Positions 56,718 through 61,045 of a stretch of DNA of 64,000 nt are shown here, in pieces. The notes under the pieces were generated by a model. It ran no database searches. It had not been told where the DNA came from and saw only the letters and a program-made list of their open reading frames with translations. Both the position numbers and the translations under genes were made by a program. The stretch is from Bythopirellula sp. (GTDB lineage Bacteria; Planctomycetota; Planctomycetia; Pirellulales; Lacipirellulaceae), in contig OZ244170.1 of assembly GCA_965216565.1 (NCBI GenBank), positions 1 through 64,000 on the forward strand. Reading direction: 5' to 3'. Each line of letters starts with the position of its first letter. The first letter of the stretch is position 1.

Positions 56718-57464
56718 ATGGGCCGAGTCATCTGCGTAGCCAATCAGAAGGGGGGCGTCGGCAAGACGACCACGGCGCTCAACCTTGCCGCGCTCTTGGC
56801 AATGGCGGGACGACGCACGTTGCTGGTAGATCTCGATCCCCAGTGTAACGCCACCTCGGGATTGGGCCACTCGCCTTCCGACCGACACGCCCTGATCGAC
56901 AACCGCCCGCTGCGGGAATCGTTCGTCGAAACGGCCCAAGCGAATCTGTCGCTGCTCCCCGGCTCGCGTAGTTTTCAGGATGTCGACACGTTGGCCAACT
57001 CTAGCGATTCGCAAGCCGTGATGCTAGCAACCCATCTCTCCGGAAGTTTGGGTTCGTTCGATACGGTGCTGATCGATTGCCCACCTTCCCTAGGTCAGCT
57101 CACTCGCACAGCACTCGCTAGTGCTAGCGAAGTGCTGATGCCAATTCAATGCGAGTATTTCGCTATGGAAGGGCTCACTCAAATGATCGAGGTAATCCGG
57201 CAGGTGATCGACCAGCCGAATAGCCGATTAAAATTTGGTGGCATCCTGCTCACGATGTACGACGCCACGTTGGAACTCACTGCCGAGGTGGATCGGGAAG
57301 TTCGCGATTTCTTCGGAGAGATTGTTTTCGAAAATGTCATCCCACGCGACGTAGCTGTGTCGGAAGCACCGAGTCATGGAAGCTCGGTGGTCGACTACGC
57401 CCCGCGATCCCGCGGAGCCCGCGCGTACGTGGAACTTTGCCAGGAGGTGCTAGAGCGTGTCTAG
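56718..57464 (+). CDS. parA: Chromosome partitioning ATPase ParA/Soj
   Basis: NQKGGVGKTT, DLDPQCN, IDCPPSLG, QCEYFAMEG, SEAPSHG. Confidence 0.96.
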   Translation: MGRVICVANQKGGVGKTTTALNLAALLAMAGRRTLLVDLDPQCNATSGLGHSPSDRHALIDNRPLRESFVETAQANLSLLPGSRSFQDVDTLANSSDSQAVMLATHLSGSLGSFDTVLIDCPPSLGQLTRTALASASEVLMPIQCEYFAMEGLTQMIEVIRQVIDQPNSRLKFGGILLTMYDATLELTAEVDREVRDFFGEIVFENVIPRDVAVSEAPSHGSSVVDYAPRSRGARAYVELCQEVLERV

Positions 57465-58479
57465 GGGCAACAATAGTAAAGAGCGACGTTTGGGCCGAGG
57501 TTTAGAAGCATTACTTGGACGATCAAATGACGAGCCTGTCGAGCAGGAAGCCGTCATTGAGATCGAAGAGTCGGAAGCGGAAACGCCTCAGACTTTGTCA
57601 ATTTACGAAGAGGATGCTTCAGCAGTCTCTCGAAGCGATGACGGCCAGCAATGGATCGAGTTGGGCTCGATTGACCGCAATCCCCATCAGCCTCGCAAGC
57701 ACTTCGACGAGTCGGAGATTGCCGACTTATGCGATAGCATTCGCAACCACGGCATACTGCAGCCGATCGTGGTGCGGCCCGCAGGCGATCGGTTTCAGAT
57801 CATTGCCGGTGAACGCCGATTTCGTGCCGCTCAGATGGCGAGCTGGGAAAGCGTGCCGGTGCAGCTCCGCGAGGTAACGGACCGACAGATGGCTGAACTG
57901 GCCATCGTGGAAAATGTCCAACGTAAGGATCTCAATCCTTTGGAAAAGGGGGCATCGTTCCAACGCTATTTGCAAGAGTATGGCTGTACCCAAGAAGAGC
58001 TCGCCACTCGAGTGAATATCGATCGATCAACCGTCGCCAATCTCATCCGATTGTTGGAGCTTCCCGAGGCTGTGAAGCAAATGATTTCCGATGGCAAGAT
58101 TGCTCAAGGGCATGCCCGGGCACTATTGCCACTGGGTGATGAAAAAGAACAATGCGAATTTGCCAAACGAGTCAGTGGCGAGTCTCTCTCCGTCCGGGCA
58201 ACCGAGCAAATGGTCCAGGGCCACATCCATCGAGCAGATGGCGAGCCTTTTTCTGTGATTGATAGCGAGGGCAATTCGCGGCCTGCGAAGACCCGTCCGA
58301 GCGAGCATCTGGCTCAAATGGAGGAGCAGCTTCGCCTCGCTTTGGGGACCAAGGTCGATCTCAAACAGACGGCCAAGGGCAAGGGCCGGATCACGATTCA
58401 CTTCAAGAATCACGCCGAATTCGACCGCTTACGCGCGATCCTCACTGGCGAGGAAGAGTCCTTGAAAGAAGCGACGTAG
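57457..58479 (+). CDS. parB: Chromosome partitioning protein ParB/Spo0J
   Basis: LGRGLEAL, NPHQPRK, IAGERRFRA, ENVQRKDLNPLE, HTH region; AGGAGG RBS. Confidence 0.96.
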   Translation: MSRGNNSKERRLGRGLEALLGRSNDEPVEQEAVIEIEESEAETPQTLSIYEEDASAVSRSDDGQQWIELGSIDRNPHQPRKHFDESEIADLCDSIRNHGILQPIVVRPAGDRFQIIAGERRFRAAQMASWESVPVQLREVTDRQMAELAIVENVQRKDLNPLEKGASFQRYLQEYGCTQEELATRVNIDRSTVANLIRLLELPEAVKQMISDGKIAQGHARALLPLGDEKEQCEFAKRVSGESLSVRATEQMVQGHIHRADGEPFSVIDSEGNSRPAKTRPSEHLAQMEEQLRLALGTKVDLKQTAKGKGRITIHFKNHAEFDRLRAILTGEEESLKEAT

Positions 58480-58598
58480 TAGTGAGGGGCTAGAGGCTGG
58501 GGGCTAGGGACTAGTAAGAATACTATACATAAGTATAGTAACTGACCTTGGCTCCAGCGGTTACCATCTATCGAAAGCTATTAGTTAATAGCATCAAG

Positions 58599-58662
58599 CG
58601 GGGCGTGGCGCAGCCTAGTAGCGCGGTCGCCGCGGCGACAGGTCGCACGTCCGAATCATGAC
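58599..58662 (+). pseudogene. tRNA-Pro-derived copy (5' portion) with anticodon arm replaced by GTCGCCGCGGCGAC
   Basis: First 27 nt match the tRNA at 26 positions; then a 14-bp palindrome; then AGGTCGCACGTCCGAATC; 3' acceptor strand lost. Confidence 0.85.
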
Positions 58663-58694
58663 ATTACTGAATAACTAAATAATCCAAAAAATCT

Positions 58695-58768
58695 CGGGGC
58701 GTGGCGCAGCCTGGTAGCGCGACTGGTTTGGGACCAGTAGGTCGCACGTTCGAATCGTGTCGCCCCGA
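58695..58768 (+). tRNA. tRNA-Pro(TGG), CCA not encoded
   Basis: Acceptor CGGGGCG/CGCCCCG, D arm GCGC/GCGC, anticodon arm ACTGG-TTTGGGA-CCAGT, T arm GCACG-TTCGAAT-CGTGT, discriminator A. Confidence 0.97.
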
Positions 58769-58772
58769 CTTC

Positions 58773-59021
58773 ATGTTCTACGTCTACGTGCTTCGAAGCG
58801 AGAAGACGGGTCGATTCTACACGGGATCATGTGGCGATCTGGATGATCGATTGCACCGCCACAACTGTGGCTACTCGAAAGCCACCAAACACGGGATTCC
58901 TTAGCAGCTCCTCTACTCTGAGGAATTTCAAACTCGTTCTGAGGCCGTTCAGCGTGAAATGTATTTCAAGAGCGGGACTGGTAGAGAAAAGCTGAAGTCT
59001 CTCATCGAGAATCTATCCTAG
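58773..59021 (+). pseudogene. Small GIY-YIG nuclease gene with one in-frame TAG (58902-58904)
   Basis: MFYVYVLRSEKTGRFYTGSCGDLDDRLHRHNCGYSKATKHGIP*QLLYSEEFQTRSEAVQREMYFKSGTGREKLKSLIENLS: YVY...YTG, RL..HN, A..RE motifs; stop sits where a Trp (PW.L.Y.E) is expected. Confidence 0.88.
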
Positions 59022-59060
59022 TAGCCTCTTACATGGATGACACACGGGTAGAACAGTGTT

Positions 59061-59113
59061 GTAGCGCGGTCGCCGCGGCGACAGGTCGCACGGCGCGAAT
59101 CGTGTCGCCCCGA
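59061..59113 (+). pseudogene. tRNA-Pro-derived copy (3' portion) with the same palindrome replacing the anticodon arm
   Basis: GTAGCGCG GTCGCCGCGGCGAC AGGTCGCACG GCGCGAAT CGTGTCGCCCCGA. Confidence 0.88.
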
Positions 59114-59131
59114 CCTTTTGTAGAGCCGGAA

Positions 59132-61045
59132 TCAAACTGGCTCGGCTGGCCGTGTTTGTAGGTCGACCATCTCTCGGTAGTCTCCCCCGGTTTGCATGAG
59201 AGCGTCGTGTGTGCCGACTTCGACGATTTTTCCGTCTCGTAAGACTACAATCCGATCGGCATGGGCGATGGTGCTAAGTCGATGGGCAATGATAAAGCAG
59301 GTTCGGCCGTTGACGAGCATCTGTAAACTGGCCTGGATCATTCGTTCGCTCTCGGTATCGAGATTACTGGTGGCTTCGTCCATAATCAGAATTTGCGGAT
59401 CGGCCAAGACCGCGCGGGCAATTGCCAGGCGCTGCCGTTGTCCGCCGCTCAGTCTTACGCCTCGTTCGCCAATTACCGTTTCGAAACCGTTCGGCAACGT
59501 CTCGATAAACTCCGTGGCATTGGCCACATCAGCCGCGGTTCGAATGTCGTCGAGGGTGGCACTGCGATCTGCATAACCAATGTTGGCTGCGACGGTGCCG
59601 TCAAAGAGAAAAACATCTTGTTCCACAATTCCGATCAAACGGCGATAACTCTCCAAATCGTACACCCGTAGTTCATTGCCATCGAGTGATATCCGGCCTT
59701 CGATTGGATCGTAGAAGCGGGCGATCAGGTTGCAGAGAGTCGTCTTGCCTGCGCCACTGGGACCCACCAATGCGATTGTTTCCCCGGGTGCGACCGTCAG
59801 CGAAAAATCCTGCAATGCCGGCCGATCCGCATTGGGATAGGAAAAGGTGACATCCTCGAATTCAAACTTGCCTACGAACCGTTCTTTGCTGGCCTTGATA
59901 GTTGGAGTGTCGGTGTCCAATTCTCTTGGTTCTTGAAGCAAATCGAGAACCCGATCGAATCCGGATAAGCTATTTTGAAACGCAGCAGCGCTCTGAGCCA
60001 GAACGGCAAGGGGGGCGAGCAGCATCAGCAAATACACGAGAAACATCATCAGTTCGCCGAGCGTTAGGTTCCCTTCCAAAACTCGCCAACCGCCGTAGAG
60101 CAATAGAGCCGCGGAGGCCAGGGGAACGAGGGTTTCCCAGACGATTTCTACGATTCGCATCCACCACCAGGCATACAACTCTTGTCGGCCCATAAGATGG
60201 TTGCCACGCATAATGCGGTTCGACTCGGCCTGTTGCCGACTGAACGCCCGAACGACTCGCGAACCCCCGAATGCTTCGGTCGCTAAGGCATCGACTTCTT
60301 CACGTTGTGCGCGGACTCTGCGGAATTGTGGTCGGATTCGGCCAATCCAAGTGCGGTGGGAGATATACACGAGCGGCACAAGGACGAGTGCCCCCAACAG
60401 CAACCGCCAATCGACCCAAGCCAAAACCACCATGCTGCCCAGGAGCTGGATCACCGCTCTCCAAGGATTGTAGAGCAAGCCGAAAACCAGATCCCCGACG
60501 CTACCTGCGTCTTGGCGCAAGATGCTCGCGGCTCCCCCCGACTTGAGTTCTTGCATCCGATGCAATGGCAATCGCAGTGCCTGGTTGATGACCCTCCGGC
60601 GAACAGACATCTGCAGGAGCTTGGTCACTCGCGTCGCGTGCCATCGGCCCCAAACACGCAGGGTGATTTGAATGACCGAAACCGTCAGCACGCCTCCGCA
60701 AATCCAAAGCAACAGGGGCCAGGGATCGCTTGGTACCCAGTCAGGCACGTATTCGGGCAGCGGTTCAGTTCCTAAGACGTTGTCGACAACAAACTTGGTT
60801 GCTGCCGGTGGCAAGAGCGATAAGACAGTCGCCACAGTCAGCGTTCCAAGCGAGAATGCGAGGCTTGCCCAATGCCCCCGCGAGAGCTGGAAGAAGCTGC
60901 GGATCAATTCGATTGCAGAACGTTCGCGCCCTCTCCGCTTTTCTGTCGTGCCATGCGGATGTGCAGGGCCATCGCTGCCTGTCCGAAATTCTTCCTTATA
61001 GTTTTCAAACCGTCTGCGAGATGGTTCGTTGATTCTGCTCGCCAA
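59132..61045 (-). CDS. ABC exporter, fused permease/ATP-binding protein
   Basis: N-terminal TM domain, GPSGAGKT, LSGGQRQR, MDEATS, IAHRLST. Confidence 0.94.
   Translation of the reverse strand: MASRINEPSRRRFENYKEEFRTGSDGPAHPHGTTEKRRGRERSAIELIRSFFQLSRGHWASLAFSLGTLTVATVLSLLPPAATKFVVDNVLGTEPLPEYVPDWVPSDPWPLLLWICGGVLTVSVIQITLRVWGRWHATRVTKLLQMSVRRRVINQALRLPLHRMQELKSGGAASILRQDAGSVGDLVFGLLYNPWRAVIQLLGSMVVLAWVDWRLLLGALVLVPLVYISHRTWIGRIRPQFRRVRAQREEVDALATEAFGGSRVVRAFSRQQAESNRIMRGNHLMGRQELYAWWWMRIVEIVWETLVPLASAALLLYGGWRVLEGNLTLGELMMFLVYLLMLLAPLAVLAQSAAAFQNSLSGFDRVLDLLQEPRELDTDTPTIKASKERFVGKFEFEDVTFSYPNADRPALQDFSLTVAPGETIALVGPSGAGKTTLCNLIARFYDPIEGRISLDGNELRVYDLESYRRLIGIVEQDVFLFDGTVAANIGYADRSATLDDIRTAADVANATEFIETLPNGFETVIGERGVRLSGGQRQRLAIARAVLADPQILIMDEATSNLDTESERMIQASLQMLVNGRTCFIIAHRLSTIAHADRIVVLRDGKIVEVGTHDALMQTGGDYREMVDLQTRPAEPV

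Follow-up and report, generated by a model that had tools for sequence, protein, structure and literature searches.

How did a very small nuclease gene come to lie directly behind a proline tRNA gene, between two partial copies of that tRNA which have both lost their anticodon? The question is raised by a locus of Bythopirellula sp. (contig OZ244170.1) situated in a stretch of 64 kb, hereafter called the window, with which a single contig of 5.21 Mb begins. Between parB and a convergent ABC-transporter gene, this locus contains successively a left tRNA copy, an intact tRNA-Pro(TGG), an 82-codon open reading frame (ORF) encoding a GIY-YIG domain and a right tRNA copy. We consider it probable that the locus is a dead copy of a selfish mini-cassette, composed of a gene for a GIY-YIG protein of the Slx1/UPF0213 type (about 80 residues) and of its own GC-rich hairpin, which docks at tRNA genes in a mode similar to that of the Ssn nucleases and their NTS hairpins, in a different GIY-YIG branch. 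The features of the locus are the following (the labels of the two flanking genes were given by eye from the ORF list):

57457-58479: parB
58599..58660, plus strand: left patched tRNA-Pro copy (positions 1-26, hairpin, positions 44-63)
58626..58639: perfect 14-nt palindrome in place of the anticodon arm, left copy
58661..58694, plus strand: AT-rich spacer (21% GC) from the left copy to tRNA-Pro
58695..58769, plus strand: intact tRNA-Pro(TGG), the sole gene with this anticodon in the genome
58770..59114, plus strand: putative mobile unit of 345 bp (spacer, ORF, D-loop remnant, hairpin, tRNA 3' half), delimited from a repeat spacing of 345 and from comparison with relatives
58773..59021, plus strand: single-domain GIY-YIG gene (Slx1/UPF0213-like, 82 codons) with an in-frame TAG at codon 44, ahead of the conserved Glu62
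59022..59060, plus strand: short spacer from the ORF stop to the right copy
59061..59114, plus strand: right patched tRNA-Pro copy (D-loop remnant, hairpin, positions 44-74 with a changed T loop)
59069..59082: perfect 14-nt palindrome in place of the anticodon arm, right copy
59132-61045: ABC-transporter gene, convergent

An earlier interpretation made from the letters of the window (the sequence-only reading) had described the same parts in the same order, and each of them was found where it had been placed. Its identical 32-bp direct repeat (58618-58649 and 59061-59092, 443 bp apart) was equally borne out, and its statement that the left copy keeps the tRNA 5' end and the right copy the 3' end corresponds, in our alignment, to positions 1-26 and 44-63 on the left and to positions ~19-26 and 44-74 on the right. 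In both copies, the palindrome GTCGCCGCGGCGAC replaces exactly the 17-nt anticodon stem-loop (positions 27-43). This exact 14-mer occurs twice in the 5.21-Mb genome, both times at this locus, for a Markov expectation of 0.12-0.14, and partial copies within 700 bp were found for 1 of the 48 tRNA genes of the genome. Over positions 1-26, the left copy shows one change relative to the resident tRNA-Pro allele. The ORF starts 3 nt past the end of tRNA-Pro(TGG), and the spacer that follows it (59022..59060) is missing from most close relatives, where the stop codon is provided by the D-loop TAG of the right copy. We rejected the reading of the copies as tRNA-mimic RNAs: their folding is no better than that of shuffled sequences (z -0.2), Rfam matches the intact tRNA alone and each copy is without one acceptor strand. 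Short purine-rich 7-mer repeats were also observed at 58486-58512, right after the parB stop and toward the left copy.

An assembly artefact, of which the sequence-only reading had warned, is an unlikely source of this layout. Indeed, contigs from run X4 (possibly the source data) tile the locus with 0 differences, TAG included; one X5 contig, from a different study, includes the left copy and differs at 20 positions in 925 nt; and a low-depth contig (depth 2) from a third study (X6) covers the left copy, the tRNA and the start of the ORF. The X5 contigs span both flanks and not 58794-59077; no contig joins them, and they were not used as evidence of an empty allele.

The ORF, read through its TAG with an X, matches PF01541 with an E value of 1e-13 (51.8 bits for a cut-off of 22.6), and the residues Y16, G18, R26 and E62 are invariant among 45 homologues. 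The in-frame TAG (58902-58904) ends the window copy at codon 44, ahead of Glu62. The gene is thus a pseudogene and the locus a relic of its family, as the relatives have Trp at this codon (TGG in 62 of the 80 metagenome relatives) and TAG is the commonest stop of the genome (886 of 2,170 long ORFs). The same observations, together with the absence of a CUA-anticodon tRNA among those called, led us to discard stop-codon recoding. A second GIY-YIG gene of this genome, outside the window (G000:C1:3190820-3191060, L464), begins right after tRNA-Asn(GTT) and is decayed, with frameshifts and no start codon; no partial tRNA copies are left there. Both tRNA-linked copies of the window genome are hence broken. 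The structure model of an intact homologue (L002, pLDDT 94) consists of a bare GIY-YIG domain of ~80 residues whose best matches are UPF0213 (1zg2) and Slx1, in agreement with sequence comparison; the family belongs to the Slx1/UPF0213-like branch of the GIY-YIG superfamily. No separate DNA-binding region was seen in this 80-residue model, which is the catalytic domain alone, and TIGR01453 scored 18.4 bits for a cut-off of 56. As judged from substitution counts (pN 0.25, pS 0.78, the latter near saturation, with pN<pS in 190 of 190 pairs), the nuclease family is under purifying selection.

The association with tRNA genes extends far beyond this locus. A protein match was obtained in 26 of the 120 genomes of the same bacterial family (window genome included), and the seven closest loci (57-71% identity) all lie directly behind a tRNA-Pro, with patched copies carrying the identical palindrome. 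Among homologues from named genomes (the best 80 of 232 relatives, or 79 after removal of one duplicate), 64 of 79 loci have a tRNA gene within 250 bp, always on the strand of the nuclease gene and representing 27 tRNA types; the tRNA is upstream in 40 cases, downstream in 22 and between tandem genes in 2. The proportion is 54/60 for loci with full flanks, and a random segment of the window genome would have a same-strand tRNA within 250 bp in 0.36% of cases. Of the metagenome homologues (the best 80 of 328 relatives), 65 of 80 are tRNA-adjacent, and a phylum sample gave 17/29 (in one of the 17, L079, a patched copy had been mistaken for a tRNA). The hosts include Bacteroidota, Patescibacteria groups, Omnitrophota, Acidobacteriota, Chloroflexota and others, and the distribution of the family is patchy. 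The spacing of at most 10 nt from a tRNA 3' end named in the sequence-only reading is not typical, only 3 of 51 upstream tRNAs being so close and most lying 11-47 nt away.

Partial tRNA copies accompany these genes. Within the 81 tRNA-adjacent loci retained, a set that excludes the closest group of the query and whose members are not all independent, 62 contain a partial copy (11 or more exact bases) and 45 show a hairpin adjoining a broken end. Overall, 84 of 182 broken copy ends abut a hairpin, versus 4.3% in shuffles. With a strict two-sided parse, hairpin patches were recognised in 34 of 91 loci, two of which depend on native T arms alone (8 of the 56 patches are native T arms). In the partial copies, the hairpin replaces a tRNA arm, most often the anticodon arm: the commonest junction, 26|44, accounts for 17 patches, which involve four hairpin types and copies of tRNA-Pro, -His, -Ala and -Ser, followed by 28|35, 24|35 and 49|58. 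Duplicates (L091, L027, L030) were dropped before counting, L008 (frameshift) was left out of the trees, and L020, L024 and L026, without a profile match, were left out. This enrichment in tRNA genes and partial copies upholds the more general proposal of the sequence-only reading, namely a minimal selfish element in which a stand-alone GIY-YIG nuclease is tied to tRNA loci. Two further arrangements were observed: upstream of the tRNA in L004, L010 and L151, amplification has given three tandem left patched copies, and a second hairpin occurs in the T loop of patched copies 3' of the ORF in L416, L417, L421, L422 and L425 (in L416 and L417 it belongs to a different sequence family).

What, then, is the unit that moves? 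In close relatives, a segment of ~315 bp contains, in order, a spacer, the ORF, the D-loop TAG as stop codon, the hairpin and a tRNA 3' half. Considering 52 distinct units composed of tRNA-Pro and the ORF, the 14-nt palindrome (at most 2 mismatches) follows the gene in 45; of these 45, the stop codon is the D-loop TAG (tRNA positions 20-22) of the copy in 32, the 3' half of the copy has the sequence of the resident tRNA in 25, and the 7-nt stretch separating the ORF from the hairpin departs from the resident tRNA in 17, seven of which match an allele at another locus. A 3' half resembling the resident tRNA together with a differing 5' remnant fits the prediction of a crossover within positions 44-76: the 5' remnant would travel with the gene and the 3' end would be that of the host. 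More than one GIY-YIG gene is present at 10 of the 52 loci, in repeat units of 315-317 bp that are 74-92% identical within one array, and one unit type, 99-100% identical across L390, L394 and L396, comes first in L390 and L396 and second in L394. The array pattern suggests serial docking or shuffling of units, provided that these metagenome assemblies are not chimeric. Excision of the corresponding 345 bp of the window would, on paper, restore a functional tRNA, given a crossover in the tRNA-identical 3' end. Of the mechanism advanced in the sequence-only reading, the selfish GIY-YIG mini-element at tRNA loci is thus retained and its 443-bp unit is not, the relatives pointing to 345 bp here and 315-317 bp elsewhere.

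The hairpin and the nuclease may be linked. One and the same hairpin is found throughout the query group of the tree (8 rows, 93/93 support), at tRNA-Pro genes of TGG, CGG and GGG type. On a quick tree of 47 rows, hairpin class changes 12 times, tRNA type 20 times and host phylum 19 times, versus 23, 32 and 27 after shuffling, which suggests a hairpin-nuclease co-evolution that is not separable from clustering by tRNA type and phylum. As stand-ins for Ssn proteins, we used six GIY-YIG genes found beside NTS motifs. With L018, L019 and L022 they form a clade with 100/99 support that leaves the query group outside (48 rows, 92 columns), and a forced joint clade of query group and stand-ins is weakly rejected (p-AU 0.036). 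The SRM motif was found within 500 bp at 1 of 117 family loci, the flanks in the window containing 0. In size, the window gene (82 codons, one domain) agrees with the Ssn description of a single-domain GIY-YIG protein of ~100 residues. The family is therefore not counted as a member of Ssn (cd10448), in view of the tree, where the rejection is weak, and of the lack of the SRM motif.

Comparison with congeners gives the state of the locus elsewhere. The tRNA-Pro(TGG) locus is plain in 20 of 24 congeners, one (G030) combines patched copies and an intact nuclease, and three have a patched left copy without the nuclease, which we infer to be scars. The GIY-YIG gene is thus absent from 23 of the 24 loci, as would be expected of a free-standing homing endonuclease in the cognate alleles of relatives. 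The sequence-only reading would have been refuted by relatives lacking the nuclease and keeping both copies; this applies in part, since the three congeners keep a hairpin-patched copy, the left one only. Where left copies are intact enough to compare, they show 0-1 changes relative to the resident tRNA allele (L031-L033), and this match indicates that they were made locally. The exact 14-mer is present in 5 of 26 congeners, four of which are those with patched copies, and is dispersed in some relatives (8 occurrences in G030, 6 in G034, 40 in G061, 24 in G111 and 23 in G067, for at most 4 in the control), often with oriented flanks. In the window genome, one-mismatch variants of the 14-mer were noticed at G000:C1:3743963, 4174047 and 4174867 (L246, L247). 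All three lie inside the loop of another repeat, a GC-rich intergenic hairpin, and two face each other, 820 bp apart. A similar sequence follows tRNA-Pro(TGG) directly in L032, L035, L044, L050 and L055, and in some congeners the ORF behind it resembles what we take to be an integrase N-terminus, which would mean that the tRNA-Pro(TGG) site is also used by integrative elements.

We therefore asked by which route such a cassette could spread. SsnA recognises its hairpin exclusively in single-stranded form and cleaves a few bases 5' of it, and NTS-ssnA-NTS is likened to a mobile element by the authors (PMC11893778). By analogy with SsnA at NTS, the nuclease of our family would bind its own hairpin in single-stranded DNA and nick beside it. 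The nick would fall within tRNA-derived sequence and create ends that host recombination could pair with a tRNA gene; this reliance on the host is proposed because the nuclease presumably has no ligase activity. The hairpin-patched 3' half would serve as a handle comparable to attP: by a crossover within positions 44-76, the unit would come to lie behind the resident tRNA, the latter being left whole, and the tRNA promoter would then transcribe the GIY-YIG gene. No sigma-70 consensus promoter was found at the locus. Nicks at hairpins may also give rise to local duplications, of which the left copy would be one, and to the patching of other stem-loops with the hairpin. The 'downstream' loci have a mirror layout (patched 5' copy, gene, then intact tRNA) which would fit docking through the 5' half, and the left copy of the window may be a scar of such 5'-half docking or a local duplication. 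The recurrent 26|44 junction could result from cutting at the base of the arm, or from inheritance via conserved D-loop and variable-loop sequences. As they are without an anticodon, patched copies would be cheap for the host and could persist as scars after the death or deletion of the nuclease.

Several observations weigh against this scenario. All its steps are deduced, no cleavage, binding, circle or transfer event having been seen, and the origin of the left copy is not explained by a 3'-half crossover alone. The fit of hairpin class to the nuclease tree is no closer than that of tRNA type or host phylum, and in G061, the genome richest in the 14-mer, the nuclease matches are distant (36-38% identity), so that the pairing of hairpin and nuclease may not be exclusive. 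Furthermore, 6 of the 60 loci with full flanks have no tRNA nearby, many of the metagenome loci are closely related to one another and may derive from chimeric assembly, and the parB-to-ABC interval yielded no exact empty allele, as the ABC gene was not seen next to parB or the tRNA in the congener loci.

The alternative that survives best, SegB-like homing, nevertheless appears unlikely. According to it, the nuclease would cut a conserved motif of intact, double-stranded tRNA genes and repair would copy the gene in, the hairpins being repair scars or resistant sites. SegB is a free-standing GIY-YIG enzyme in a tRNA cluster that reads a T-arm motif (PMC2330249) and drives tandem amplification of tRNA-segB (PMC13096335), and T-arm patches do occur in our family. 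However, most loci retain an intact tRNA next to the gene; the protein, a bare domain of 80 residues, is nearest to UPF0213/Slx1 and not to I-TevI and has no extra domain for a 27-bp site; and the hairpin also lies away from tRNAs. Close phage relatives were not found either: phage and plasmid collections gave weak matches (35-50% identity, E 6e-5 or worse) and, of 11 pattern matches in viral contigs, 0 were confirmed.

The purifying selection on the family could also be taken as the mark of a domesticated host function, in which the nuclease-hairpin pair would restrict incoming single-stranded DNA or mobile elements at tRNA hot spots, the copies serving as decoys. The 3' halves of tRNAs are, as generally known, common integrase targets, and SsnA lowers the integration of NTS-bearing DNA (PMC11893778). 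Yet the nuclease is missing from all but one of the congener tRNA-Pro(TGG) loci, both tRNA-linked copies of the window genome are broken, and arrays of diverged, partly broken units fit selfish turnover, so that we hold this function to be quite improbable.

The sequence-only reading had favoured an attL/attR-type event, in which a 443-bp circle carrying tRNA and nuclease would excise between the 32-bp repeats. These repeats are identical and direct, and their outer ends would join into a full-length anticodon-less sequence. Such an excision would, however, delete the only tRNA-Pro(UGG) of a genome where CCA codons are common (11,583 in long ORFs); the lone anticodon-less copy that it should leave behind is seen in 0 of the 24 congener loci; many relatives keep the right-hand unit without the left copy; and, as that reading had itself remarked for integrases and transposases, no recombinase was seen nearby (ORFs of 52-64 kb, read by eye). 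A 443-bp piece is conceivable as a donor-side intermediate; as the mobile unit, we regard it as very improbable. Least credible of all is the movement of the hairpin in trans by a REP-associated tyrosine transposase (RAYT) with the GIY-YIG gene as a passenger, since, although patched copies start with GTAG, the tetranucleotide tagging one REP superfamily (PMC3733652), and the genome has 7 Y1_Tnp matches and relatives a REP-like dispersion of the hairpin, none of these 7 Y1/HUH genes is flanked by the hairpin as in a REPtron, the GTAG of the locus is that of the tRNA D loop, dispersed copies are flanked by other sequences, and hairpin type follows the GIY-YIG tree better than chance.

If the docked selfish cassette is retained as the preferred explanation, a wider proposal can be made, more tentatively and with rather less than even confidence. 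The family would represent a class of mobile cassettes that is widespread, undescribed and the smallest among autonomous ones (~315 bp), combining an Slx1-like GIY-YIG gene with a cognate hairpin, using tRNA sequence as docking homology, promoter source and stop codon, and moving without transposase or integrase. It would form shuffled arrays, retarget across tRNA types and phyla, and have its hairpin swapped into stem-loops of folded single-stranded DNA, with related branches inside 23S rRNA and RNase P RNA genes. A full-text literature search, with most subscription papers outside its scope, retrieved no description of GIY-YIG genes with hairpin-patched tRNA copies. Were the proposal correct, a very common class of 'GIY-YIG hypothetical proteins' of Planctomycetota, Bacteroidota, Patescibacteria and other phyla would be selfish tRNA-docked cassettes and not repair enzymes, and the recurrent tRNA pseudogene debris of these genomes would be accounted for. 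The Ssn concept would extend to a second GIY-YIG branch offering many natural nuclease-hairpin pairs, each with a predicted substrate, and it would become testable how a purely hydrolytic nuclease spreads itself and a short palindrome, a point open for Ssn and for REP-type repeats. The window copy itself, a relic, is of value as a pointer to intact relatives.

Related GIY-YIG genes were also encountered in other settings. They lie within 23S rRNA genes in L086 and L087 (near 1500-1730 in gene orientation), the former being flanked by inverted repeats and resembling an intervening sequence, and within an RNase P RNA gene in L074 (1183-1891). Others were found behind a tmRNA (L150) or behind a group I intron with tRNA 3' sequence behind it (L152, L164), and some seem to interrupt protein-coding genes (L072, L076, L081, L085), with short terminal inverted repeats at the bounds of L076 that recall a miniature insertion sequence.

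Among known systems, the inferred unit first calls to mind the integrase-driven elements of tRNA 3' ends, which keep the resident tRNA intact and carry a duplicate 3' half at the far end. Our unit has both properties; it differs by the absence of an integrase (its sole ORF is the GIY-YIG gene), by its size of ~0.3 kb and by a duplicate that contains the hairpin and a D-loop remnant serving as stop codon. Slx1-like and UPF0213 proteins (PDB 1zg2, 1ywl) are the best matches in sequence and fold, a minimal GIY-YIG domain being common to both; they are presented as probable repair nucleases, with no link to tRNA genes or hairpins given in the part of PMC1564403 available. REP/REPIN sequences and their RAYTs likewise couple short palindromes, dispersed between genes, to a nuclease gene (PMC3733652), whereas the partner in our family is a hydrolytic GIY-YIG and not an HUH/Y1 enzyme, and its hairpins replace tRNA arms. 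SegB of T4/T6 also sits beside tRNA genes and spreads or amplifies with them by recombination (PMC2330249, PMC13096335); it is a phage enzyme with a 27-bp double-stranded site, in contrast to a chromosomal, minimal, Slx1-like protein associated with hairpin-patched tRNA copies. Finally, Ssn/NTS shares with our family a small single-domain GIY-YIG gene whose cognate GC-rich hairpins occur in its flanks and dispersed in the genome (PMC11893778), and some family hairpins even share the TCCCGC..GCGGGA core of NTS. The two are distinguished by separate clades, by an identity of 30-34% to NTS-flanked proteins, whose C-terminal extension our family does not have, by the SRM motif missing from the window flanks, and by docking at tRNA genes with arm-patched copies, the word 'tRNA' not appearing in the main text of PMC11893778.
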